A program made the translations under genes and the position numbers. 29,471 bases of DNA, from assembly GCA_019454865.1 (NCBI GenBank), contig JACFNJ010000002.1, forward strand, positions 1 to 29,471. Direction: 5' to 3'. The DNA is from Bacteroidia bacterium. Its GTDB lineage: Bacteria > Bacteroidota > Bacteroidia > UKL13-3. The notes below the pieces were generated by a model, which saw only the letters and a program-made list of their open reading frames with translations, was not told where the DNA came from and did not search any database. Positions 3,360-17,020 of the stretch are shown piece by piece. Each line of letters begins with the position of its first letter. Position 1 is the first letter of the stretch.

Positions 3360-4013
3360 ATGAGTGAATTAACAAATAAAGACATTGCAGCTTTGCGTGT
3401 TGATTACGGTTCCAAATCATTTAATGAAAACGAAATAAATGCTAATCCTTTTGAGCAATTTAAGATATGGTTTGAAGAAGCTGTAAGTGCGCAAATAAAT
3501 GAGCCCAATGCAATGGTTTTATCTACTGTTAAAGCTGATAATTCACCAAGTGCACGGGTAGTACTTTTAAAGGGAATAACTAAAGATGGGTTTACATTTT
3601 TTACTAATTATAAAAGTAATAAAGGAAACCAAATTAGCAAAAACAATAAAGTTGCATTAACGTTTAATTGGCTAGAGTTACATCGCCAGGTACGAATAGA
3701 AGGTGAAGTTGAACAATTATCAGCCGAGGAAAATGATCATTATTTTTATATTCGACCAATCGGTAATCAAATTGGGGCAATAGCATCGCCACAAAGTCAA
3801 ATTATTACTAATAGAGATGCATTAGAAAAACTTTTTATAGCTGCTGAAAAGCAATTTGAAAATAAAAATCCAATAAGGCCTGAACATTGGGGCGGGTATG
3901 TGGTAAAACCTTCATTAATTGAATTTTGGCAAGGTAGAAGTAATCGCCTGCACGATAGAATAGAGTTTGTAAAAAGCAACTCACTATGGAAATTCCACCG
4001 TTTGGCACCTTAA
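3360..4013 (+). CDS. pdxH: Pyridoxamine 5'-phosphate oxidase
   Basis: LRVDY, NPFEQFKIWFEEA, EPNAMVLST, SARVVLLKG, FFTNYKSNKG, RQVRIEG, WGGY, IEFWQGRSNRLHDR, RLAP. ATG at 3360 preferred over TTG at 3354. Confidence 0.95.
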   Translation: MSELTNKDIAALRVDYGSKSFNENEINANPFEQFKIWFEEAVSAQINEPNAMVLSTVKADNSPSARVVLLKGITKDGFTFFTNYKSNKGNQISKNNKVALTFNWLELHRQVRIEGEVEQLSAEENDHYFYIRPIGNQIGAIASPQSQIITNRDALEKLFIAAEKQFENKNPIRPEHWGGYVVKPSLIEFWQGRSNRLHDRIEFVKSNSLWKFHRLAP

Positions 4014-4089
4014 TTCTGTTTTAATTGATTTTTCTTCTTATTTTCGTCCAATTAAAACAATAACCATAGTCCCCAATCGTTATTAACGC

Positions 4090-5208
4090 ATGCAAAATAT
4101 TATTTTGTCATTTTTAACTTCGTTACTGATTGTAATATTTGGAATACCATCTATTATTACGGTAGCTAAGTTAAAAGGGTTGTATGATAAGCCGGATTTT
4201 AGAAAGATACATACAAACAAAATTCCTCGATTAGGTGGTTTAGCTATTATTGCAGGTTTTTCGATAGCTGTTAGTTTATGGGGAGTATCCGTAGGTATGG
4301 ATACCCGATTACAATATTTACAGGCAGCGGTTATAATTTTATTTTTTTCCGGTTTAAAGGACGACATTGTTATCCTTTCTCCTATGAAAAAATTGGGTAC
4401 ACAGATAGTTGTTACCTTAATTACTGTATTTGGCGAAGGCATATTGTTAAATAATTTTCACGGCTTGTTAGGCATTCATGCAATACCTGATTGGTTTGCT
4501 TATGCTTTAACGGTGTTTACAATTATAGTAATTACCAATTCATTTAATTTAATTGATGGGGTTGATGGGCTTGCAGGAGGCGTAGGTTTTATAATCTCAG
4601 TAACTTTTGGATTATGGTTTAATCATATTGAACAGATAGGTTGGAGTGTAATGGCATTTGGACTTGCTGGTGCATTATTAGGTTTTTTGGTGTTTAATTT
4701 TAATCCGGCTAAAATTTTTATGGGTGATTCCGGTTCCTTGTGTACCGGTTTTTTGCTTTCTGTATTTGCAATTAAATTTATACAGTTTAATGGACCGGAA
4801 GCTGTAAGTGCTTTTAAAATTTCTGCATCACCGGCAATTGCAATAGCAATTTTAATAATCCCATTGTTTGATACACTTCGTGTATTTATTCTACGTGTAC
4901 TTAACAAAAAATCGCCATTTGCAGCAGATAAAAATCACATCCATCATTACTTACTGCGTATAGGATTAAGCCACAGAGAAGTTTCATTAATTATGTATAG
5001 TGTAAATATTTCATTTGTTGCATTAGCATATTTATTACAAGATAGTTCAACCAATATGATTATGCTAATTGTTGGCGGATTGGCATGGATATTATCTCAG
5101 GTTCCGGTGTATATGTTTAATCATAAGCTACAAGATTTGGAAGTAGAAAACGAAGATTTGATACCGGATGATCTATTGAAACAGAAAAAACATTTTCACG
5201 AGAACTAG
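4090..5208 (+). CDS. Undecaprenyl-phosphate GlcNAc-1-phosphate transferase (WecA/TagO, MraY-like glycosyltransferase family 4)
   Basis: RKIHTNKIPRLGGLAI, GLKDD, NSFNLIDGVDGLA, FNFNPAKIFMGDSGS, PLFDTLRV, DKNHIHH; many TM helices. Confidence 0.9.
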   Translation: MQNIILSFLTSLLIVIFGIPSIITVAKLKGLYDKPDFRKIHTNKIPRLGGLAIIAGFSIAVSLWGVSVGMDTRLQYLQAAVIILFFSGLKDDIVILSPMKKLGTQIVVTLITVFGEGILLNNFHGLLGIHAIPDWFAYALTVFTIIVITNSFNLIDGVDGLAGGVGFIISVTFGLWFNHIEQIGWSVMAFGLAGALLGFLVFNFNPAKIFMGDSGSLCTGFLLSVFAIKFIQFNGPEAVSAFKISASPAIAIAILIIPLFDTLRVFILRVLNKKSPFAADKNHIHHYLLRIGLSHREVSLIMYSVNISFVALAYLLQDSSTNMIMLIVGGLAWILSQVPVYMFNHKLQDLEVENEDLIPDDLLKQKKHFHEN

Positions 5209-5786
5209 TTTATCTTTTCTTTTAAAAAACCGATCATTTTTGAGAATGCCTTACCACGGTGGCTTATTTTATTTTTGGTAGTTAAATCCATTTGAGCAAG
5301 TGTAATATCATATCCATCCGGAAGAAAAACAGGGTCGTACCCAAATCCGTTTGTTCCAATTTTTTCTTTGATAATTTTCCCTTTAAGCTCTCCTTCAAAT
5401 ACAAACATCTCGTCATTCCAAAATAGGCAAATGGAAGTTACAAACTTAGCGGTTCTATCCTGTTTGTCTTCAAGGTTTATTAATAGCTTTTGCATATTAT
5501 TATCATCGGTTGCATTTGGTCCGGCATATCTTGCACTAAATACTCCGGGTGCACCATTTAGTGCATTTACAATTAGTCCGGTATCATCAGCAAAACAATT
5601 GTATCCGGTTTTGTTGTTTACATACCTTGCTTTAATAAGTGCATTTGCTTGAAGTGTGCTGCCAGTTTCGGGTATATCTTCGGTTAAATTTATATCATTT
5701 AATGTCAGTATCTCAATTGTAGAGTCTAACATCTTTTGAATTTCTTTAGCTTTGTTTATATTGTTTGTTTCAAAAAATAATCGCAT
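5205..5786 (-). CDS. rdgB: Non-canonical purine NTP pyrophosphatase (RdgB/HAM1)
   Basis: ETGSTLQANALIKA, FADDTGL, GAPGVFSARYAG, GFGYDPVF, KNKISHRGKA. Confidence 0.94.
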   Translation of the reverse strand: MRLFFETNNINKAKEIQKMLDSTIEILTLNDINLTEDIPETGSTLQANALIKARYVNNKTGYNCFADDTGLIVNALNGAPGVFSARYAGPNATDDNNMQKLLINLEDKQDRTAKFVTSICLFWNDEMFVFEGELKGKIIKEKIGTNGFGYDPVFLPDGYDITLAQMDLTTKNKISHRGKAFSKMIGFLKEKIN

Positions 5787-5951
5787 AAAATAAGGTAAAT
5801 AAAGGATTAAAAAATGGATAATTAAAGTAAGACTTGAGTTGAACTTTTGTGTTCTGTGAGTATTAAAATGATTGTATTAATAAAGTTTGTCGCTTTGAAA
5901 CTTTGTTAAAAATGGTATGGTTTGCAAATGTGTTTGAAACTGTTGTTGCAT

Positions 5952-6617
5952 TCAGTCAATGTTTTTTACTTCTATAAGTTTTCGTTCAAAAAAATTCAAT
6001 GCAAATAAACTTCCATATCCTTCTTTGTGCTTAAATACGCAGCCCCCGTCTAAATTGATAGGGCTTTGAAAGGGTTGCGTAATGATAAAATTCCTTGGTT
6101 TTGGTGTGTGTCCGTGTATTAAGAGTTTTCCATTCAAATAATTATTTTCAATAGGAAAGTTCCTTATCCATAAAAGCGCATCTTTATCTTTCAAAGGGTC
6201 AGCAGCAGAAAAGTTTAAGCCGGCATGAACCAGTATAAAATATTTTGTTTGAATAAAATATTTTGTTCGCTTGAAGAAGTCTAAATATTTCTTGTCTAAC
6301 TCATAAATAGAACCTACTCCAAAACTCATGAATGTCTTATCGCCACCGTTGCATAGCCAATGTTCTTTTCCTGCTTCGTCAATTTCCGATTCTAACAAAA
6401 GTTGTTCATGATTCCCTCTAAGAGTATGAATTTTATATCCCTCGTTTCTAAGTTGAATTATAAAATCAATAACACCTTTGCTGTCGGGTCCTCTGTCAAT
6501 ATAGTCGCCAAGACAATAAATTTTATCAGTTTTCCGGATAGCTATCTTTTCTATCAGCAATTTTTTAAATGTCTTGCTGCATCCATGAATATCGCCTATG
6601 ATAAAGATTCTCGGCAT
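5952..6617 (-). CDS. PPP-family (PphA / lambda-phosphatase-like) metallophosphoesterase, probable Ser/Thr protein phosphatase
   Basis: GDIHG, LGDYIDRGPDS, LRGNHE, VHAG, IHGHTP and a degenerate LDGGC motif. ATG overlaps the kinase TAA (TAATG at 6619-6615). Confidence 0.85.
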   Translation of the reverse strand: MPRIFIIGDIHGCSKTFKKLLIEKIAIRKTDKIYCLGDYIDRGPDSKGVIDFIIQLRNEGYKIHTLRGNHEQLLLESEIDEAGKEHWLCNGGDKTFMSFGVGSIYELDKKYLDFFKRTKYFIQTKYFILVHAGLNFSAADPLKDKDALLWIRNFPIENNYLNGKLLIHGHTPKPRNFIITQPFQSPINLDGGCVFKHKEGYGSLFALNFFERKLIEVKNID

Positions 6618-8344
6618 TAAAACAGTTTGGTTTTATCATTTGTAAACTCATATTCAACATTGCCAATACCAACCGTATTTCTGCCAATCAACGGAGCTTT
6701 AAGATTTATTATTTTATCATTCAGGTAAGTTCCTGTACTGTTCAGGTCGTAAATCCAAATATCGTCTTTGTAATTTACGATTACACAATGTCTTCGGCTT
6801 ACTTCTGTACCACCGGGAACTTTCACATCATTTACATCATAATTTTCTCTTCCGAATTTGATGATGGGTTTGTTGGTTTCTGCTTCTTTAAAGTTTGCGG
6901 TGTTGCCGTTGGTGCAATACAAAGTTGATGGACTGTACTTGTTGAAGCGATAATCCATGAACAATAATTTTGATTTAAGCGTTGGCTCCTTTTTGTAATT
7001 GTGCGATGGTTGTGTTTCTAATAGTACGCCATAGTTGTAATTCAGAAAATGATTATCTGATTTATCAGCCTTTAAAACGGTATGCGGAAAAACCATTTGT
7101 CCCATGTTTTGCATTACACAACAGATGTAGTAATTATTTGCAAAGCATGGATTGTTTGGCTCAACTTCTAAAAGTATTCTTGCTAAATCCATTGCAGGCT
7201 CGTAGCGGTTGGTTTCGTAATAGCATTGCAGCAATAAATTATAGGCTTCATAGTCTGACGGATTGCGGTGCAAATGGTCGGATAACAAGGAAATTGCCGT
7301 AGGATAGTTTTGCAGTTCAAGATTTATCCATCCTAATTCTTTTTGTACGTCTAAGCGGGGGTTCCATTTCAGTGCTTTTTCGTAGTATGATTTTGCCTGT
7401 TCAATCTGCTGTGCCATCAGGTGATATTTGCCTTTTTGCAGCAAAATATTCACGCTGGGTTTTAAGTTGGTTTCGGCATACTCTAATAGTGAGAACGCTC
7501 TGTTCCATTTTTTGCGTTGTAATAATCGTTCGGCCTGCTCAGCCAAATCGCCTGCCTGAATTACCTCTTTATCAAACAGAATAGGAACTGATTGTGCCTG
7601 TATTGCCTCATGAAAATCTTTCATGCTCTGAAACCTTTGTTCAGGGATTTTGGCAATAGCTTTTAAAATAATTTCCTGCTGCCAGTTGGGTAGGGGTGTA
7701 ATTCCAAATTCTTTCCGGTCATGCAGTTCAATTATTTCTTCTGTTGATTTTCCATTAAATGGATTCTGGCCTGTACACATTTCTAAAAGTGTTACACCCA
7801 AAGCATATACGTCCACTCTTGGATCTTTTTCGGTATGGGTTTCCCAACTTAATGCTTCAGGACTCATGTAAGGTCTTGTGCCGCCTCCGGTATTGGCAAT
7901 GCCAAAGTCGGTTATTTTGATGGTGCGGTCTTCTGTAAAAAGAATATTGTCCGGCTTAATATCGTGGTGTACAATGCCTTTTTCATGAACCAACTGAAGG
8001 GTTTCGGTTAATTGGCTCATCCATTTCCAAATGAGAGTGGAAGCAGGGTTTTCGTTTCGCAGCAATTCGCGCAAGCTGCCCAATGTGCAATATTCCATTA
8101 CAATGTAGAGCAAATCATTCTGAACAAAATGATGCTTGTATAGCACAATATGCGGATGATTGAACTTTGATACCATCTGCATTTCGTAAATAATATCATC
8201 CTGCCTTGTCTTATCTTCGTTTTTTAACTGCTTGATGGCAACCAGATTTTCAGAGCGTTCCTCCTTTGCCAAAAACACTTTGCCAAAACCTCCATTGCCC
8301 AGGTCTTTTACATAGCGGTATTTATTATCAAAGAGTAGCTCCAT
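6617..8344 (-). CDS. Hanks-type Ser/Thr protein kinase with central TPR repeats and C-terminal FHA domain
   Basis: LGNGGFGKV, VAIK (K38), HHDIKPDNIL, TDFGIA, YMSPE, DVYALG. TPR-like helices (KGKYHLMAQQIEQAKSYYEKAL; AYNLLLQCYYETNRYEPAMDLAR). FHA motifs FGR, VSRRHCVI, DLNSTGTYLN. Confidence 0.9.
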   Translation of the reverse strand: MELLFDNKYRYVKDLGNGGFGKVFLAKEERSENLVAIKQLKNEDKTRQDDIIYEMQMVSKFNHPHIVLYKHHFVQNDLLYIVMEYCTLGSLRELLRNENPASTLIWKWMSQLTETLQLVHEKGIVHHDIKPDNILFTEDRTIKITDFGIANTGGGTRPYMSPEALSWETHTEKDPRVDVYALGVTLLEMCTGQNPFNGKSTEEIIELHDRKEFGITPLPNWQQEIILKAIAKIPEQRFQSMKDFHEAIQAQSVPILFDKEVIQAGDLAEQAERLLQRKKWNRAFSLLEYAETNLKPSVNILLQKGKYHLMAQQIEQAKSYYEKALKWNPRLDVQKELGWINLELQNYPTAISLLSDHLHRNPSDYEAYNLLLQCYYETNRYEPAMDLARILLEVEPNNPCFANNYYICCVMQNMGQMVFPHTVLKADKSDNHFLNYNYGVLLETQPSHNYKKEPTLKSKLLFMDYRFNKYSPSTLYCTNGNTANFKEAETNKPIIKFGRENYDVNDVKVPGGTEVSRRHCVIVNYKDDIWIYDLNSTGTYLNDKIINLKAPLIGRNTVGIGNVEYEFTNDKTKLF

Positions 8345-8347
8345 TGC

Positions 8348-11300
8348 TTACTCAATTTTTATTTTCTCATACTCCGCCTCGCTTAGCCAAAAATCTTTAT
8401 CTATTATTTTTACTTCATCATAAGTGAGTTCATACAGCTTGTAAACCAATACATCTATTTCTTTTTCTATAGCAGTAGTGTCCTGGTTTGCTTTTTTCTT
8501 TTTCAGGATTTCATCTACTAATTTTTCAAATTGATTTTCTAATCTACTTGTAAGAATTTTCGGAATTGGAAATTGTTTAGTATTAGCAATAAGAATTTTT
8601 TGGAAAATTTCTTTCTCCTTGTCTAAACACCTATTTGCATGATAGAACTTAATTAATTCAGAATTGAGTATTGCCAAAATGAATTTGATTTCACTTATGC
8701 TTTTCTTTTTTGAAATAACTCCAAAACCAATTTGAGTAAAGTATAATTCATCCTCAGTATAACCAGCATGAATTTTGAAATCTGGTTTACCAGCAACAAT
8801 TTGTCTAACTATAACTCTAGGCTCTTTGAAGAATTTTATCTCTCGTGGTGCACCAAGCCAATCGCCATATTTTAGAAACTCATCAATCGGTGTATTTTCA
8901 ATATTAAATTTATGAATATTCTTACCACTAATTAGCGGAACATATTTATTGTTGAGTTTCTTTTCAGAATGAAAAATTCTATTCTTAATATCTTCATTTG
9001 AATGCCCTTTGTATTTATCGTACGGTGTTATACCCAAAGAGAAGTCAGCAATATTCTTTAGAGTTTTACCAGTGCTTTCAATTTTTCTTAATATCAATTC
9101 AGTGTTATCGTCTGAGAAAATATTGAATCGGACATCCTTGTCCTTTTCCCAATCTTTCCTTGTGAAGTATGTGTATTCAAGATTGTTGAAATTTACATTC
9201 TCACCATTATCAAAATATCTTGTTTTAATAGTTTTTTCATTATTTCCTTTTTCTGCTTGTAAAATGATTGTCTCAACGATTGCTTCAAAAACATTATCAG
9301 GTAACTTGATAACTTGCTTCAAGCTTTGAATAAGATGCCTTCTTAGTAGCTGGTAAGATTCATTAACCAGTATTGAATTTGGAATGATGAAAATTATATT
9401 GCCATCTTTAGAAAGCAATGAATACCCCTTCTCAATAAATACTGCATATAGATTGATTCTTTTTTGCGTTGTCTTAAATGATTTGAAAAACTCTCTTACA
9501 ATTTCGGGCGGTAAACTTTTTATATCAACATAAGGCGGATTTCCAATTACCACATCAAAACCTTTGTCAATGCCAAACATCCATGTGGGAGAAAAGAAAG
9601 GGCTGGCTTTGCTGTCGTCAAAAGGGTTCCAGTGTTTTATTTTTTGTGCTATTTGTTTCAATACAGGGTCGTGTGCGGCTTCTATGTCGGCAATTACTTT
9701 ATCCCGTTGTTCAAAATAATTGGTCTTAAGTTTTTCTTTCTCGGTGCTTGCCAGGGCAGGTGTAAAAAATTGTTTACGCAAGTCTTCCAATGCTTTCAGT
9801 TGGCTTACTAATTTTTCAGTAAAGCCTTCGTGCAGTGTGCCTTTGCTTTGTTGTATAAAAGCATCTAATCCCAAATCAATTAAGCTATTGGCACATACAA
9901 ATTTAAAATCAAGGTTAGGCAGTGGTTTTACTCCAAAATTGTGCACCGGGTCTTTTGGGTTGTAGTTTTCTTCCAGCACCAAACTAAGCCATGCCCGCAA
10001 CCGTGCAATTTCTATTGCCATCGGCATAATGTCCACTCCATAAATATTCTGGCTCAGTATATCTTTCTTCAGTTCGTAGCTACTTTTTACTGTTCCCAGG
10101 GTTTCGTGTAGCTCAACCAACTTGTGCAAAATGCCCATAGGGAAGGCACCCGAGCCACAGGCAGGGTCTAATATTTTTATCTGCTCTAAAAATTGCAGCA
10201 GCAAGTTTTTTTCTTCCTTCTTTAATTGTGCTGCATAGGGTGTAGCACCAAAAAGCGGCTCAATGGCTTTTTCTATTTTGGTTTTTTCTTCCGGTTTCAG
10301 TTCATAGCGTTTTATTTCTATGGATAATTGCTGCGGTTTTTTGTTGCCAAAAATGTCGCCTGCTTGTTCGGGGTTATTCAGCGTTTTGGATTTCTTCTCA
10401 ATAATGTGCTGCTCCCACTGTGTTTGCAAATAGGCTTTAATGCTTTCGTTCACCATATAGTCCACAATCTCCCTTGGGGTATAAAAAGCACCATAAGCCT
10501 TTCGTTGGTTAGCTAATTTTTCAGTTTCTTCGTTTTGGCTTGCCAGCAGGTTTTCAAAAATACGACCCAGCATTTCGGGGTCAACTGCCACTTGCTGGTA
10601 TTGGCTGCTGCTTTCATCCACCGTAAAATCGTAGCTCTCCAATATTTCTACAAAAGGCAATAGCCATGCATCTAAATTTAAATTGGTAAACAGTTTGTCT
10701 TCATCACTTTCATCAAACAAGCCTCCGTTCAGGTAGGGTATATTGTCTGAACTATGATTTTTATGATTATTTGATTTCAGGATTTCTCTATCCTGAACCT
10801 TAGTGTTCAGCGTTTTGAAAAATAATGGAAGCAGAATGGTTTGATAATAGTTTGTTGTGTTGCGAATGTTTTCACAGCTGATTAATCCCGATGGAATAAT
10901 TCCTTTTTCTTTCAGAAACCAACAGAAAATATATCTGCCTATTAAGCGAACAGTAAATTGCTTTACCTGATTTTCGGTTGCTTTAGCATGTTGTGTTTTA
11001 ACTATGCCCAACAATGCATCAAAGCGTTCTTTTATTTGCTTGTAGAACTCTTTGTTTACTTCTTTAATGTCAAGTGATTTCCAAAGCAGGTCAGCAATTT
11101 CGGGTTTCGTTTTTGAGCCAACACCTTGCCATTGTTGTATGATTTTGTTGTATTGTGTGGTGGTTAATCTGCTGCGGAAAGAAACAATTCTTTTTTGTTC
11201 ACCCTGATTGAAAATCAGCACCAGTTTATCATAATCGGGTGTAGTTACAAAATGAATGAAATAGGGTTGCGGTGGAATGTATTGTGGTTTACCCGGAATA

Positions 11301-11665
11301 TGAATAATACCTTTAATAGAAGCCTGATAAGTGCTAAGTCCGGGGTCGTTGTCAACCAATTGGCTGATATATTCTTTCTTTAATTTTTTTAATACGGCAA
11401 AGCGGACACGGATATTTTGATTGTCGGCACTCAGGCGATACAACTGAGGTTGCACGGTTTGCGGAGCCGGAGCTAAATAATCTTTCAGTTTTTGGGTTTG
11501 TGGCGAAAGCAATTGCGGCTTGCCTGTCCCGTCTTTTGCGGGGCTGTCCTTGTTCACTTCAATGTTCATCCATTGCAGCAGGGCAAAAGCAAAATCCAAT
11601 ACATTTTCACGTGATGGATTTTCAGCCAAATGTGCTAATATTTTATTGATTTCGTTAATTGTCAT
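8348..11665 (-). CDS. Eco57I/Type IIG-like N6-adenine DNA methyltransferase with C-terminal TaqI_C-like target recognition domain
   Basis: YLNGGLF, VDPEMLGRIFENLL, GAFYTPREIVDYM, motif I ILDPACGSGAF, IYGVDI, motif IV VIGNPPY, TRD-type IVRQIV and FILAILNS, tail EIDVLVYKLYELT. No PD-(D/E)xK motif recognised in the N-terminus. Confidence 0.9.
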   Translation of the reverse strand: MTINEINKILAHLAENPSRENVLDFAFALLQWMNIEVNKDSPAKDGTGKPQLLSPQTQKLKDYLAPAPQTVQPQLYRLSADNQNIRVRFAVLKKLKKEYISQLVDNDPGLSTYQASIKGIIHIPGKPQYIPPQPYFIHFVTTPDYDKLVLIFNQGEQKRIVSFRSRLTTTQYNKIIQQWQGVGSKTKPEIADLLWKSLDIKEVNKEFYKQIKERFDALLGIVKTQHAKATENQVKQFTVRLIGRYIFCWFLKEKGIIPSGLISCENIRNTTNYYQTILLPLFFKTLNTKVQDREILKSNNHKNHSSDNIPYLNGGLFDESDEDKLFTNLNLDAWLLPFVEILESYDFTVDESSSQYQQVAVDPEMLGRIFENLLASQNEETEKLANQRKAYGAFYTPREIVDYMVNESIKAYLQTQWEQHIIEKKSKTLNNPEQAGDIFGNKKPQQLSIEIKRYELKPEEKTKIEKAIEPLFGATPYAAQLKKEEKNLLLQFLEQIKILDPACGSGAFPMGILHKLVELHETLGTVKSSYELKKDILSQNIYGVDIMPMAIEIARLRAWLSLVLEENYNPKDPVHNFGVKPLPNLDFKFVCANSLIDLGLDAFIQQSKGTLHEGFTEKLVSQLKALEDLRKQFFTPALASTEKEKLKTNYFEQRDKVIADIEAAHDPVLKQIAQKIKHWNPFDDSKASPFFSPTWMFGIDKGFDVVIGNPPYVDIKSLPPEIVREFFKSFKTTQKRINLYAVFIEKGYSLLSKDGNIIFIIPNSILVNESYQLLRRHLIQSLKQVIKLPDNVFEAIVETIILQAEKGNNEKTIKTRYFDNGENVNFNNLEYTYFTRKDWEKDKDVRFNIFSDDNTELILRKIESTGKTLKNIADFSLGITPYDKYKGHSNEDIKNRIFHSEKKLNNKYVPLISGKNIHKFNIENTPIDEFLKYGDWLGAPREIKFFKEPRVIVRQIVAGKPDFKIHAGYTEDELYFTQIGFGVISKKKSISEIKFILAILNSELIKFYHANRCLDKEKEIFQKILIANTKQFPIPKILTSRLENQFEKLVDEILKKKKANQDTTAIEKEIDVLVYKLYELTYDEVKIIDKDFWLSEAEYEKIKIE

Positions 11666-12268
11666 TGTTTTTTCTTCTTTCCGGTTTTCTTTACTTCTTT
11701 TAAAACATTTTTTTCTTCGCTATCCAATTTGCGTTTCAGTTTGATAATGTCTTCAGCAGGTGGCAATGCCTTTGCTGCGGATGATTGCGAAACCTTTATC
11801 GTCAACACCTCTTTCATAAATAATTCCCGAAAGTTTTTTCTCTGACTTAGAAAGCTTTTCTCTTGCAGTTACTCTTGCCACATCAAGTAATCGTTGCTCA
11901 ATGATTTCTTGTTTACGGGTTTGAACAGCAAAATAGGTTTGAGCAAATGCAATTTCACTTTTTGCCGGGTCGCCATTCTGAGCAACTAAATAACAAGCGT
12001 ATCTTGTGAGCGCAACATCATCAACAGGTCGTTGTGTTCCACTGCCAATATCAACCATTTTCCTGACATCAGGGAAATGGTTTTTCACCTCAACACCACT
12101 GGCTTCGCAAGCAGTTTTCGCTTTCTCAATCACTTTTGAAAAATTCTCCCACTTTGCGTAGCCCAGAATCACCTGTAATTCTCTTGCACTCCAGCATTCA
12201 ATACCTTCATATAAATAACAGGCGTTTTGGAATTTGTCAAAGAGTTCGTTTATCTGTTCTTTTTTCAT
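11662..12268 (-). pseudogene. dinD: DNA damage-inducible protein D (DinD, BRO-N-like) with internal out-of-frame deletion
   Basis: DinD motifs WSARELQ, LGYAKWENF, NHFPDVRKMV, LTRYACYLVAQNGDPAK, AFAQTYFAVQTRKQE up to ...RSKG, then IATC-stop at 11753. The shifted frame from 11769 encodes the DinD-like C-terminus ALPPAEDIIKLKRKLDSEEKNVLKEVKKTGKKKKQ-TGA (11664-11662), whose stop overlaps the methyltransferase ATG. Confidence 0.8.
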
Positions 12269-12313
12269 TTTTCTTTTTGTTTTTCAAACATTCCGAAGAT
12301 TAGCTTTGAGCGG

Positions 12314-15300
12314 TTACTCAAATATCTGTATAATTTCACTCAATGGTGCCCGCTCTGATTTTTCTTCGGGTTTGTATTGGTTAGCCAACGAAATGAATTG
12401 CTGGATAATTTCATCTGAAACATGTTCACCTCTACGGTTCAGGCGGTTTACCAATCGCACCAATTTTAAATTCTCTTTATTAATATAGGCATTTTGCGAG
12501 TGTTGAATACAATGTTCAACACGGTCAATTTCTTCAAACGGATAACCATACTCAATCATTTTGTTTTTTATAAATAGTATTGCACTTTGTTGAGGCTGAT
12601 TATATCGCACCTGATGCTCTTCTTCCGTAAACTGGTATCGTTGTAGTATGAAATCTGAAATGTAGGCTTCAGTTTCGGGTTTATGTTTGAATTTATCGGC
12701 AAAGCGTTCGTTTTGTTCGCTTGTTGCTTTTATGTGTAATAAGCCTTCGGTAGTGGTGAGCAACTCACCAATCTTATCTTTGGTGAATATCACAAAATAA
12801 CCTGCATCCAACGTTTCTTCTTCACCTGTAGCCAAATGACCAAGATGTATAAAATCATCTTCTTCTTTTCGCATTTGCACTTTGCCCCATTTTCCTTTAG
12901 GCATATTCTTAATTTGCTCTTTGTAAGTTAAAGTAAATTCTTCATTTCGGTCAAATGCTCTAAGGTCGTCCATAAATAAGTCTTCGGCAGCAAGCAATTC
13001 CGATGTTTCAAATATTTTTTGGAAGGCTGCCATACGTTTCTTTTCGTCACGGCTGTAAAGGTCTTCTGTATAATCTTGTGGCTCGGGATCTTCGTCTAAA
13101 ATAGATTGGTCGGTTCCAATAGTATAGCGAATCAGGTTGATTTTATCTTCTAATTTACGGACTAACTGCAAATAACTTTCCAACTGTTCTTCAGGACGGA
13201 AATTATAAATAAAAATCTCTTCGTGTTTAGTTCCCAAACGATTGATACGACCATTTCGCTGAATCATTCGCACAGGGTTCCAATGCAAATCGTAGTTAAT
13301 AATCATGCCGCAATCTTGCAGGTTCTGCCCTTCAGAAAGTTTGTCAGTAGCAATCAAAAAATCAATTTCCTTTTCTCCGTTTTTTAGTTGGTATTTTTTA
13401 GACACAGGAGCAAAGCGTTTGGCATAATCTTCTATCTCGCTTTTTGAACCTAAGGCAAATTCAATGTTTTTGCCTTTCACTAAATATTGTGGAAGGTTTT
13501 CAGACAGATATTGTAAAGTGTCGGCAAAGTAGGTAAACACCAAAACTTTTCGGTCTTCATTCTGATTCAGGTGTTTGGCTAATTCCTGAATCTTATCATC
13601 CTTATCTAACAAATACTTGATTTGTTCTTTCAGAATTTTTAGCACTGCAATATCTTTGCTGATGTCAGCTTTCAGTTGTGTTACATTAAACACTCCTTCA
13701 TCGGCATCAATACTGGTAAAGCCCTCCTCTGCACTTTCAAAATCTTCAATATCAAAGTCCAATTCATCCTCATCAGCATTTTGTTCATTGTAAGCATCAA
13801 TGGCTTTATTTAGAGCAGAAAGATTTTTAACCGAAATTATTTTATTGAATTTTTTCAATTTATTTTCAAAGTCAATCAGCTTTTTCTCATAGCTGCCAAT
13901 TGATTTATTGATAGAGAAAAGTGAAGATTCCAAACGTTTTAAGAATACGGTTCTGAAAATGCCGTAAATACCTATTTGTCTGCTCAGTTCCCGGTTTTCA
14001 TCTGCATTCAATTCTAATTCGCCACGTTTTCTGCCGTAGTAAGCATGACGATAAATGTTGTATCGATAGCATGGGAAACCTAAACTCAGTAATGCAGTGT
14101 AAATAATTTCAAGTGATGAATGAATGGGTTTGTCTCTTTCGGTGTAATGATCAAACAAATCAAGTGGATGTGCTAAATACTCCAAGTCAGCCAAACTGTT
14201 TATCTCATAGTTGAAAGCCCTTGTGAGTTCAGGATTGGTCTCGGCATATTTCAATAATTGCGATTTGAACTGATTGGAAACTTTATATTCTAAATTGTCG
14301 GGATAAGATTTTGGGAATTTTTGAAGTTTACCATTTATCTCTAATCCATCAGGATATTCTTTTTCAATTCCTTGCCTTGTTCGTCTTACAATAAAGCGAT
14401 TCAACAAAGGAGTGAGTTGTTCTTTTATTTGCTGATAATTTATAAATCCGCTTTCACGTATTTGCCTTCTCATATCTGTTTGCAGCAGTTCAAAGCGTTC
14501 TTTTAGTGTAAAATATTTTTGAGTGCTGCGGTCATAAAATTTCCCTAACTTAAAAATTTCGCCACCCGAACCTAACATGATTTGGTTGGTAAGGTCGGCT
14601 AACTGATTGTTGATAGGGGTTGCGGTAAGCAGCAAGGTTTTAGCATTTTCATTTTCCTGTCGCCATTTGATAAATACATCAAAGCGTTGTCCGCCAGATG
14701 CTCTTAGGTTGTGGCTTTCATCAAAAACAAATAAGCCAACGGGAATAGATTGCAGGTTTTCACGAACATCTTTAATTTTCTCGGTATCCTGCAAACTGTA
14801 AATTTCAGGAATATGAACCACTTTAAAATCATCGAATGATTTTCTCCATTGTTGAATTAGCCCCGCAGGTGCAATGACCACAACTCGTTGATTCAAATTT
14901 TGTTTGTAGTATTCAATCACCTTTATGGCTGTGTATGTCTTGCCCAAACCAACAGAATCAGAAAGCATTGCCACGCCTTGTCGTTCTAGTTTTTTAATAA
15001 GCGAATTGGCATTTTGTATTTGAAACTTCAATAGCTGTGGTTTCCCTGAACTTGGGTCGTCTGTGTCAACTTTATTTTCTTTCTCGTCTAACAAATCCTG
15101 CCCGTAAATGCGATACAAGGCATGGATATACATTTCGTAAGCACTAAAACAAGTACCGCCATGTTTACTCAAAGCCAGAATTTCTTCTTTGAAAGTTTTA
15201 CTCCAATCTTCACTATCGTTCCATAATTCTTCAAACCACGTGCGATGTGAAGGATGCTGAGAAAGATTTTTGCGGATAAAGTTTACAGTTGCATTGTTGT

Positions 15301-15820
15301 CCTCAAACTGGTTTAATTCAAGATTACCGAACAATCCTTGCTTTGTGAAATTAGAACAACCGATAATGCCTATTGCATTTTCTTCATCCGATCCAAAAAT
15401 GTAACACTAAGCATGAAGAAAGTTTTTACGGTAAACTTTGATTTGAATTTTTCCGGTATTCGTTTCGTTCATGTGTTTTCCTAGCAAGTCAGCAACTTGC
15501 TGAAACTCGTCTTTCAGTTGCAGGTTCTCTAAATCATTTTTCAAATATTTTTCGGGAAAGTCGGGGTCTTGCTGCTTTGGTTTTTTAACTTGATAGGCTC
15601 TTACAGATGGTTCTTCGCCTAATAGCAGTCTGAATGTAATATTGTCCCGTTCCAAAAACTGATTCAATTCTTCAAGGATTGTAACCATTCCGGGCAAATC
15701 CCAATAACCTGTTGCAATTGAAATTTGAGAAAAACTTTTGTCTTGTATTAGTTCTTTTAATACAGTACCAAGTTGATACTCGTTTGATGAATTGTCAATT
15801 AGCTTTATACCTTTCTTCAT
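12314..15820 (-). pseudogene. PLD (HxK) nuclease-SNF2/DExH helicase fusion interrupted by one in-frame TAG (1168 codons if read through)
   Basis: ORFs 15407-15820 and 12314-15334 are in the same frame, joined by 24 sense codons: FLHA-TAG-CYIFGSDEENAIGIIGCSNFTKQGLFGNLELN. Helicase motifs LSDSVGLGKT, FVFDESHN, LLTATPINN, VLVFTYFADT, ATDKLSEGQNLQ, QRNGRINRLG. Confidence 0.85.
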
Positions 15821-16104
15821 TTCTTCAAATTCTTTTTTAGAATGTTCAATGCATCAGGAGCTAAATCTTTTTCGTTACCAACAGCGTTTTCCAACTTATC
15901 AGCCAGCCAAAGCGTAAGCAGTTCTTCTTCGTAGGCTTTTAAGAATTTGGCAATCTCAATCACCTGTTGTTTGGATGCTTTTCTTTTCCCTCTTTCAATC
16001 TTGCTCATAAGTGCAGTGTCCACCTCGAGATGTGCAGCAACCTGTCGTAGTAGAAGGTTTTGCTTCTCTCTCAGTTCTCTGATTCTCTGCCCTAAATTGC
16101 TCAC
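15817..16104 (-). CDS. XRE-family HTH transcriptional regulator (controller-protein-like)
   Basis: LGQRIRELREKQNLLLRQVAAHLEVDTALMSKIERGKR; GTG start; its TGA overlaps the helicase ATG (ATGA at 15820-15817). Confidence 0.88.
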   Translation of the reverse strand: MSNLGQRIRELREKQNLLLRQVAAHLEVDTALMSKIERGKRKASKQQVIEIAKFLKAYEEELLTLWLADKLENAVGNEKDLAPDALNILKKNLKK

Positions 16105-16119
16105 GATGTTAGTTTTTTG

Positions 16120-16147
16120 TTTGACTTGTCAAATTATGTCAAATGTA
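16120..16147 (-). promoter_or_regulatory. Putative operator palindrome and -7 promoter element of the XRE operon
   Basis: TTTGAC-TT-GTCAAA perfect 6-2-6 palindrome at 16120-16133, a further GTCAAA half-site at 16138-16143, and minus-strand TACATTTG (TAnnTTTG) at 16147-16140. Confidence 0.55.
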
Positions 16148-16444
16148 AGTATTATTTCCGAAATCAAAATGTGCCAAATGCGGGAGGGCGTATAATTATT
16201 TTTTTAAATGTATGGTGGGAAAATTTTAATAACTTTTGGGTCGGGTTAGGTGTAGGCAAGGTCGGTCTGTTTCAAGATGCAATGAACTGTCTGTCGAATC
16301 AAAGTCCGCTTATGTTTTTGGCTGTAATGTCGTGCGATTTTTAGTCGAAATTGTCAAGGGTGAACGGTTGTCCTACTCATGTCTGTAACATGTGTATTTA
16401 ATACATTGTGTGTTTAAATAATTATACCTATTTACTTTTTAGTG

Positions 16445-17020
16445 CTATTGAAAAATTTGCTGAATTAAATTCCAAAGGACAAGTTTTTTTTCTTTGTTTT
16501 CGTGGTAGTTTTCGGGTGCATCTGCAAGCAGTATTTTCGTGTTGTTTTCAACTAAAATCTGATGAAAAGAAGTAGCAGGAAAAAACGGTTGTGTACCAAA
16601 AATTATTATTTGCTTAGGTGATAACTCCTCCAAAATTTGATTTTTAGTTAGTGTAGGGTTTTTTGAGATTCTAATTATTGCAATATCATCTAATTGTAGT
16701 TGCAATGCTTTTTGAAAAATATTTTGTATAAATAGCGCATTCTCCTTGCTATCGTTTGTAGTATCGTTGTAAATAAATACAATATGTTTTTGGTTTTTGC
16801 CTGCATACTCTATCTTTGGCAGGTTGATTGTATTTTGAGGTTGATTCAAAGAATCATTTATCAACGTATTTGATTGATTACTTTCTATTGCAGGAGTATT
16901 ATTTGTAACGGTTTCCTCTTTATTTGTCGAACCGGTAAATAACTCTTCTTTGGATGTAATATCCGATACCAAATAAAATTCATCAAATAAATCAACAATT
17001 GTTTCTATTTCTAATTTCAT
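16445..17020 (-). CDS. Conserved-looking hypothetical protein (low-complexity N/T-rich linker, alpha/beta C-terminal domain ending K..LW..I..IF)
   Basis: 191-aa ORF with host-like AT-rich codons; no function recognised with confidence. Confidence 0.65.
   Translation of the reverse strand: MKLEIETIVDLFDEFYLVSDITSKEELFTGSTNKEETVTNNTPAIESNQSNTLINDSLNQPQNTINLPKIEYAGKNQKHIVFIYNDTTNDSKENALFIQNIFQKALQLQLDDIAIIRISKNPTLTKNQILEELSPKQIIIFGTQPFFPATSFHQILVENNTKILLADAPENYHENKEKKLVLWNLIQQIFQ

Follow-up and report, generated by a model that had tools for sequence, protein, structure and literature searches.

A horizontally acquired defence cassette that probably layers a kinase–phosphatase module onto a restriction–modification-like core

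Introduction

Several described phage defence systems combine DNA methylation with helicases, nucleases or protein kinases, and these are the closest points of comparison for the locus considered here, an inserted six-gene cassette in a 29,471-nucleotide stretch of a Bacteroidia bacterium genome (positions 1-29,471 of contig JACFNJ010000002.1, assembly GCA_019454865.1; hereafter the window) that encodes an XRE-family regulator, a nuclease–helicase, a DinD remnant, a DNA methylase, a Ser/Thr kinase and a phosphatase. Type-2 bacteriophage exclusion (BREX)-related systems, or Hma, contain an HKD-SNF2 helicase, a DUF1156 methylase, a DUF499 ATPase and DUF3780 (Rakesh & Krishnan 2026, PMC12839542), and the Class 1 defence island system associated with restriction–modification (DISARM) comprises drmD, drmMI, drmA, drmB and drmC. 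The methylation-associated defence system (MADS; mad1-8; 10.1101/2023.03.30.534895, PMC13662399) includes the defence kinase MAD6, and its model treats MAD6, MAD7 and MAD8 as mandatory (10.1101/2023.03.30.534895). In BREX type 2, or phage growth limitation (Pgl), the kinase is PglW, which has been interpreted as a backup effector (PMC12839542). The kinase–kinase–phosphatase system (KKP; PfkA/PfkB/PfpC) consists of two kinases, one of them fused to a cold-shock domain (CSD), and a PP2C phosphatase that acts as an antitoxin; a phage protein inhibits the phosphatase and so unleashes the kinases, such that the phosphatase both restrains the kinase and is the phage-sensing point (PMC11341870). The single-gene kinases PD-T4-6 and Stk2 carry a Hanks-type kinase domain, and an abortive-infection logic has been proposed for them.

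All parts of the cassette are of known kinds, namely restriction–modification (RM)-like HKD-SNF2 effectors, PglX-type methylases and defence kinases, but the specific cassette is unnamed. We interpret it as a horizontally acquired, layered composite of three separable modules and not as one new machine, a reading to which we assign a probability of roughly 0.6. The evidence comes from an empty insertion site in related genomes and from reciprocal counts of gene neighbourhoods, taken once from the kinase and once from the nuclease–helicase.

Gene content and comparison with named systems

The features of the insertion are listed below by window position; domain calls are from Pfam, and L-numbers denote related loci.

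5787-16444, unstranded: the entire inserted defence cassette, between rdgB (5205-5786) and a gene of 191 amino acids (aa; 16445-17020)
16120-16144, unstranded: candidate operator 5′ of the XRE gene, with the palindrome TTTGACTTGTCAAA at 16120-16133 and then a second GTCAAAT
15817-16104, minus strand: XRE-family helix-turn-helix regulator, 95 aa (Pfam HTH_31/HTH_3; PADLOC matches to 'Control_protein' and capH-like profiles)
12314-15820, minus strand: fusion of an HKD (phospholipase D, PLD) nuclease and an SNF2 helicase, 1168 codons (SNF2-rel_dom, ResIII, Helicase_C)
15407-15409, minus strand: TAG at the HxK lysine of the fusion, an assembly-specific variant (AAG in contigs of four runs)
11662-12268, minus strand: DinD (Bro-N) remnant, a 171-aa open reading frame (ORF) at 11753-12268 with an out-of-frame tail (Bro-N; PADLOC PDC-S13)
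8348-11665, minus strand: gamma-class N6-adenine DNA methylase, 1105 aa (Eco57I, N6_Mtase, MmeI_Mtase, TaqI_C)
8665-9565, minus strand: swapped specificity region of the methylase, ~aa 700-1000 (drop in identity against L001 and other cassettes)
6617-8344, minus strand: cytoplasmic Ser/Thr kinase, Pkinase-TPR-FHA, 575 aa (Pkinase 1.4e-52, TPR_19, FHA)
5952-6617, minus strand: lambda-phosphatase-like phosphatase of the PPP family, 221 aa (Metallophos 2.7e-17)

The ORFs and Pfam domains agree with the initial annotation in both gene order and junctions: all six genes run in one direction on the minus strand, the XRE stop and the PLD-SNF2 start share 4 nt (ATGA), a 45-nt gap separates PLD-SNF2 from DinD, the old DinD frame still terminates in ATGA at the methylase start, the kinase begins 3 nt past the methylase stop, and the kinase stop and the phosphatase start have 1 nt in common (TAATG).

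We compared the encoded proteins with NCBIfam models at their curated cut-offs, and among those tested only DinD passes. The helicase scores 144.6 bits against the DrmD model NF038317 (cut-off 610) and 71 against NF038318 (cut-off 950); the methylase scores 82 bits against BREX-1 PglX (cut-off 500) and 44 against BREX-2 PglX (cut-off 400); and the kinase scores 116.7 bits against MAD6 (cut-off 460) and 77 against PglW (cut-off 990). In PADLOC the kinase matches mad6, its best profile, and PD-T4-6 through the kinase domain only, covering positions 49-304 of 659 in the mad6 profile; the several PD-T4-6 profiles (E 1e-50 to 4e-55) capture a generic kinase domain and carry no curated cut-off. Required components of the named systems were also missing. 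Pfam found no PglZ or BrxC domain in the six genes, Pfam and PADLOC together found no DUF499, DUF1156 or DUF3780 in them, and no window protein matched MAD7 or MAD8 among the PADLOC results shown. Neither DrmA nor DrmB was found among the six insertion genes with Pfam or PADLOC, and on either side lie housekeeping genes that congeners share, so the absence of drmA and drmB noted from the sequence at the outset stands. By curated cut-offs or required parts, no named system fits, whether DISARM, BREX-2/Pgl, MADS, Type-2 BREX-related or KKP, and this agrees with the initial annotation, in which the combination was not recognised as a named system.

The resemblances are nevertheless specific enough to place the locus. 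It shares with Type-2 BREX-related/Hma systems an SNF2 helicase that carries an HKD nuclease at its N-terminus, an N6-adenine methylase and an RM-like logic, but it has only two core genes, lacks the DUF499 ATPase and DUF3780, and carries an Eco57I/PglX-type methylase instead of a DUF1156 one. The kinase family described here also terminates true Hma operons in two loci, L059 and L065; these had been considered as true MADS loci, a candidacy rejected when PADLOC assigned them to Hma (HmaB, HmaC) with an OLD-type ATPase. Class 1 DISARM likewise has an SNF2 helicase, an N6-adenine methylase and PLD domains, whereas here drmA and drmB are absent and the PLD is fused to the helicase, with no separate DrmC. 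MADS is also a methylation-based defence operon with a Ser/Thr kinase, although the kinase match is confined to one domain and MAD7, MAD8, MAD3 and MAD4 are absent here. BREX type 2/Pgl combines a PglX-type methylase with a protein kinase and a phosphatase-fold protein; PglW, however, is a 1400-aa NERD-pseudokinase-kinase, PglZ has an alkaline-phosphatase fold where this locus has a PPP enzyme, and PglY/BrxC is not present here. KKP resembles the 3′ part of the cassette in being a mobile kinase and phosphatase unit for phage defence, one kinase of which has an FHA domain, but this locus has a single TPR-FHA kinase without a CSD and a lambda-phosphatase-like PPP enzyme, and most members of its kinase family have no phosphatase. 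Finally, PD-T4-6 and Stk2 share the Hanks-type domain and the proposed abortive-infection logic, whereas the TPR-FHA tail sets the present kinases apart as a small family of their own, which is operon-terminal beside methylase-based systems.

Acquisition and recurrence of the cassette

In all eight same-genus genomes with enough contig, rdgB and the 191-aa gene are directly adjacent and the cassette is absent, and the outer flanks, ilvE and a glycosyltransferase, are arranged as in the window. Positions 5787-16444, kinase and phosphatase included, were therefore acquired. No target-site duplication or inverted repeat of at least 11 nt was found at the cassette borders, and a tblastn search of PLSDB at E<=1e-40 returned no kinase homologue on plasmids. 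We had considered that the kinase might be a housekeeping gene beside which an RM system was inserted, as its many equal-length homologues suggested; this was ruled out by the differing genomic contexts of those homologues and by the absence of the entire block, kinase included, from congeners.

The order XRE, PLD-SNF2, DinD (where present), methylase, kinase and phosphatase (where present) recurs in L001, L004, L007, L009 and L015, with kinases 72-98% identical and flanks that define four different genomic contexts, which supports the proposal that this is a mobile, defence-type cassette. The XRE gene is kept at the cassette head in L001, L004, L009 and L015. In three further loci on cut contigs (L003, L011 and L040), the methylase lies directly upstream of the kinase. 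On the kinase tree the cassette loci fall in a well-supported clade of nine rows, five of which are PLD-SNF2 cassettes (the window, L001, L004, L007 and L009), the others being three on contigs too short to judge and L006; the kinase of L015, which has the same cassette, sits just outside. In L006 a 34-aa remnant of the methylase C-terminus (L006:9880-9981) lies just upstream of the kinase–phosphatase pair, and the restriction genes have been replaced while the pair was retained. The gene now upstream of that pair encodes a DUF2779 protein. Within this shallow clade the cassette moves as one unit, and it is only within this clade that the full cassette is stable.

A decayed cassette was also seen in L045 (~4000-9700), where the Eco57I-type methylase upstream of the kinase is split into five ORFs and both PLD-SNF2 and the kinase are whole.

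The nuclease–helicase and methylase form a self-sufficient pair

The first of the reciprocal counts started from the helicase. Homologues of PLD-SNF2 of ~1100 aa were sought in evenly sampled Bacteroidota genomes (n=401) and occurred in 39 (~10%), and 20 of the loci were taken with 8-10 kb on each side. An Eco57I-type methylase is adjacent in 16 of these 20, and neither the kinase nor the phosphatase is present in any of them, the nearest helicases (77% and 62% identity) included. The two-gene pair is therefore self-sufficient, with the kinase module an optional addition. Literature searches returned no description of a PLD-SNF2/Eco57I-type pair, which is not proof of absence. The pairing of an HKD-SNF2 protein with a PglX-type methylase is common, being found in about one in ten sampled Bacteroidota genomes, and it offers a simple setting in which to learn how a BREX-like methylase steers a nuclease that translocates.

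This count bears directly on an alternative in which the cassette is a single integrated system, with kinase and phosphatase acting as a phospho-switch on the methylase or the nuclease–helicase to license or restrain restriction, and with five genes that only work together. The near-zero gaps from methylase to kinase to phosphatase, and the identical gene order that moves as a unit into four genomic contexts, are what one would look for in such a system, and kinases are integral and required in both MADS and Pgl (10.1101/2023.03.30.534895; PMC12839542). The 20 helicase loci, none of which has the kinase even beside the closest helicases, argue against it, and they caution that the assumption that an operon equals a system can fail a reciprocal neighbourhood count.

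A portable kinase family at the ends of methylation-based operons

The kinase consists of a kinase domain (aa 1-250), a TPR region (~270-400) and an FHA domain (~495-550). Both its catalytic residues (K38, D128, K130, N133 and the DFG at 146-148) and the phospho-Thr-binding residues of its FHA domain (R499, S516, H519 and N542) are invariant among nine homologues of 63-83% identity. More than 100 homologues share a constant length of ~575 aa. The TPR-FHA tail is rare (E<=1e-30: ~70 cluster representatives out of 1.84 billion). When one genome per species was scanned, 79 loci were recovered, in at least seven phyla, among them Bacteroidota, Verrucomicrobiota, Pseudomonadota, Acidobacteriota, Chloroflexota and Thermodesulfobacteriota. 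Our literature searches found no paper on the kinase-TPR-FHA family, again not proof of absence.

For the second count, ORFs were called in the kinase loci and clustered, and recurrent neighbours were annotated. Upstream sequence of at least 5.4 kb was available for 54 loci, whose partners within 10 kb of the kinase on that side are as follows.

PLD-SNF2 gene: 16/54 loci
Eco57I-type methylase only: 7/54 loci
Hma (HmaB/HmaC): 5/54 loci
BREX-1 (PglX-PglZ-BrxL): 3/54 loci
PglXI with SNF2: 2/54 loci
PDC-S37/Hhe helicase-nuclease, DUF2779, McrBC, SNF2 alone or DUF6339: 7/54 loci
No recognised partner: 14/54 loci

A methylase-based system thus lies within 10 kb of the kinase in 33 of the 54 informative loci. 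Partner type is randomly scattered on the kinase tree: an IQ-TREE phylogeny of 66 kinases required 39 partner changes against 40.4 with shuffled labels, and near-identical kinases sit beside differing systems (L076/L061, L029/L057 and L038/L027). Beyond the cassette clade, then, the kinase is promiscuous, and it represents a small portable family attached to the ends of many methylation-based defence operons.

The neighbour count, which the initial annotation had put forward as a check, came out mixed. Seen from the helicase, none of 20 loci has the kinase or phosphatase and 16 have the methylase; seen from the kinase, 33/54 loci have a methylation system of some kind and only 16/54 a PLD-SNF2 gene. 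That frequency is still far above the ~10% seen genome-wide for PLD-SNF2, and this is a further point for the integrated phospho-switch. On the other hand, kinases that are nearly identical have BREX, Hma, PDC-S37 or McrBC as neighbours, or none that can be recognised, which means that they conserve no particular protein partner, and two of the five full cassettes, L007 and L015, have lost the phosphatase. We consider the integrated system unlikely. Of the original proposal of a methylation-based system with a phosphorylation layer, the tie between the kinase and methylation operons is supported and a single integrated six-gene system with an obligate phosphorylation layer is not: no PLD-SNF2 locus of 20 has the kinase, 16 of 54 kinase loci have PLD-SNF2, and the phosphatase follows the kinase in 12 of 63.

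The same scatter might instead indicate that kinase and phosphatase are an autonomous, toxin–antitoxin-like abortive-infection pair of the KKP or PD-T4-6 kind, lodged in defence islands with no tie to their restriction neighbours. Random partner type on the kinase tree would fit such a pair, as would an upstream neighbour on the opposite strand in 12 of 66 loci, kinase–phosphatase pairs that adjoin AbiEi, TNT-toxin or NOV_C genes in loci without any methylase, and the match of the kinase domain to single-gene PD-T4-6 profiles (E 4e-55); there is also a precedent in KKP, where a phosphatase-restrained kinase defends alone (PMC11341870). The upstream neighbour is nonetheless on the same strand as the kinase in 54 of 66 loci, and the kinase is strongly biased (33 of 54) towards the 3′ end of operons that are co-directional and built on a methylase, where starts overlap or nearly do; this points to co-expression and to a functional link of some kind. 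In addition, most kinases have no phosphatase neighbour and no other phosphatase family appears in 63 downstream genes, so toxin–antitoxin logic cannot be general. An autonomous pair is, in our estimation, quite improbable.

The association pattern of the kinase is real, unusual and easily testable. One tentative proposal, which we put forward as speculation that is on balance unlikely to hold, is that the kinase-TPR-FHA family is a general-purpose guard of methylation-based immunity that, placed at the 3′ end of BREX, Hma/BREX-related, McrBC, PLD-SNF2/methylase and other operons, would sense phage countermeasures to restriction, or restriction that has stalled or failed, and respond with protein phosphorylation that aborts infection, with the lambda-like phosphatase as a reset. 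If true, such a guard kinase would correspond to PARIS or PrrC, but with phosphorylation as its output. A rare kinase family shared by many methylation-based systems that are otherwise unrelated would clearly exemplify layered immunity by protein phosphorylation.

Two arrangements downstream of the kinase were also recorded. In about a dozen Flavobacterium genomes (L026-L039 and L085), DUF6943, DUF5675, an SNase-like gene and an unknown 267-aa gene lie 1-8 kb downstream of the kinase, and the upstream system varies (BREX-1, PglXI/SNF2, PDC-S37 or PLD-SNF2); these loci look like a defence hotspot or a cargo site of a mobile element, with the kinase at a fixed edge. In L066 (11685-12743) and L081 (11700-12758), an AbiH gene starts 1 nt past the kinase stop.

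The phosphatase

The translation of the phosphatase contains GDIHG, GDYIDRG and GNHE, the metal-binding motif set of the PPP family, and its nearest solved structure is 1G5B, the bacteriophage lambda Ser/Thr phosphatase, which is also 221 aa long (E 2e-10). Judged by these motifs and this similarity, it is a lambda-phosphatase-like member of the PPP family. It starts 0-1 nt downstream of the kinase in 15 loci. Some kinase loci have no phosphatase, and we considered that a substitute such as PP2C might take its place in these; the 63 genes downstream of kinases, among which no PP2C or other phosphatase family was found, ruled this out.

Scores of the phosphatase with ApaH and PrpE models, none of which reach the cut-off, leave some room for a reading in which it is an ApaH-like nucleotide (Ap4A) hydrolase, or the pair serves ordinary cell signalling, neither being linked to defence. 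The nearest solved relative is, however, a protein phosphatase, its start overlaps the kinase stop, the pair lies inside an insertion that is absent from all eight congeners, and the kinase family is patchy across phyla and found in defence contexts. In a variant of this reading that is itself defence-linked, the phosphatase would strip phosphates placed by phage kinases off defence proteins; phage T7 encodes a kinase that disarms defences through phosphorylation (PMC13645617), which such an enzyme could counter. We regard these explanations, taken together, as highly improbable.

Integrity of the restriction–modification-like core

The initial annotation had treated the TAG in the PLD-SNF2 gene as a lesion in need of repair to AAG. 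The gene is a single frame of 1168 codons interrupted solely by this codon, at the HxK lysine. Its best PADLOC profile is C3a139 'HKD+Snf2', with a match to HmaA as well; the orthologues in L001 and L004, which are unbroken at 1167 aa, contain PLDc_2, and the HxK, T and GSxN residues are conserved across five orthologues. To check the variant we compared positions 5900-16200 with Logan contigs of four metagenome runs, each from a different study (biofilm, bioreactor, sludge and activated sludge). Position 15409 is T and not A in all four runs, giving AAG (Lys) on the coding strand; the nuclease–helicase is therefore intact in the natural population, and the TAG is an assembly-specific variant. 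The window also differs from all four runs at 15358, 15374 and 15391, such that all four sites fall within 52 nt, and it is otherwise identical to three of the four runs across ~10 kb. Three of these four window-only substitutions are non-synonymous and lie in the PLD catalytic core (K138 to stop, T144S and S155C), where T144 and S155, the latter in the GSxN motif, are invariant in five homologues. A share of 0.90 of sampled words was present in each of the 17 best-matching runs, which is the proportion to be expected if none of them carries the 52-nt variant of the window. No shared motif, which would be a sign of methylation-linked base-calling error, was evident around the four substitutions. 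The TAG may be an assembly error or a rare, nuclease-dead allele. The example cautions that a seemingly inactivated nuclease can prove to be an assembly-specific variant.

We also considered whether the methylase might be a full Type IIG enzyme like MmeI, in which a PD-ExK nuclease is part of the same polypeptide. This was rejected: the PADLOC REase_MTase_IIG profiles match only from ~aa 195 onward, and the N-terminal PD-ExK-like residues (PD..EQK) are replaced in the homologues of L117, L118, L020 and L022. With no conserved nuclease motif in the methylase, the HKD domain is left as the likely nuclease. Compared with L001, residues 1-700 of the methylase are mostly 92-99% identical, apart from one 100-aa stretch at 85%, whereas residues 700-1000 are only 21-38% identical in cassettes that are otherwise 98% identical, and the same drop is repeated against L004, L007, L009 and L015. 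Run X2 also contains a second allele, at similar depth, with 1678 other letters in place of 8467-10122; specificity swapping is thus ongoing within one population. A swapped and polymorphic specificity region is as expected of a working RM-type specificity subunit.

A layered model and the points against it

Under the layered reading, the first module would be an XRE-controlled, two-gene RM-like core, with the XRE protein setting expression. The methylase, with its exchangeable specificity domain, would mark host DNA and supply sequence recognition, and it might recruit or license the HKD-SNF2 motor-nuclease on unmarked DNA; the HKD-nuclease/SNF2-helicase would then act as an ATP-driven translocating nuclease that destroys such DNA. 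This predicted core would resemble a split Type ISP or Type III arrangement. The kinase-TPR-FHA protein and its lambda-phosphatase-like partner would form a second layer at the 3′ end, co-transcribed with the first. The TPR part may sense a phage cue or the failure of first-line restriction, upon which the kinase would autophosphorylate and then phosphorylate host or phage proteins, stopping the infection; the FHA domain would read phospho-threonine, and the phosphatase would keep the kinase silent or reset it. A defence kinase of this sort, or one curbed by a phosphatase, has precedents in MAD6 of MADS (10.1101/2023.03.30.534895), PglW (PMC12839542) and KKP (PMC11341870). Layered immunity of this kind could be examined with one small cassette.

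Several points weigh against this interpretation. All activities in the model are predicted only, and each of its biochemical steps is inferred. In eight loci -1 to 9 nt lie between methylase and kinase, and PLD-SNF2 is the most frequent single partner of the kinase (16/54); this tight coupling to a preferred partner could mean that the kinase directly regulates restriction proteins. A phosphatase gene comes after the kinase in only 12 of 63 cases, all from the nearer part of the family, and L007 and L015 retain the kinase with nothing but an N-terminal stub of the phosphatase, so a strict relation of kinase toxin and phosphatase antitoxin is not general. The counts themselves should also be interpreted cautiously, given that genes of the related loci are simple ORF calls, that partners were labelled from a limited number of annotated clusters, with no partner recognised in 14 of the 54 informative loci, and that the PLD-SNF2 sample was drawn from one phylum and includes a few short contigs.

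Candidate operator and DinD remnant

A scan for sigma-70 promoters and terminators gave counts not above those of shuffled sequences, Bacteroidota promoters being outside the coverage of the models. The perfect palindrome TTTGACTTGTCAAA and the GTCAAAT that follows it are a candidate operator, by likeness to the C-protein operators of RM systems.

The DinD of the window has 171 aa, against 283 in the intact copy of the 98%-identical locus L001, which scores 356 bits over residues 2-276 with the NCBIfam equivalog NF008573 and so clears its cut-off of 242. The truncated form is covered without gaps in runs X1, X2 and X10; the truncation is real, and the gene in the window is internally deleted. 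In the more divergent strain of run X4, DinD is wholly absent, with a joint at 11665->12333. Of the other cassettes, L001, L007 and L015 retain a whole DinD gene and L004 and L009 have none. Being intact, decayed or absent from one cassette to the next, DinD is thus an optional passenger, and the Bro-N protein would be the product of a hitch-hiking gene that is now decaying.

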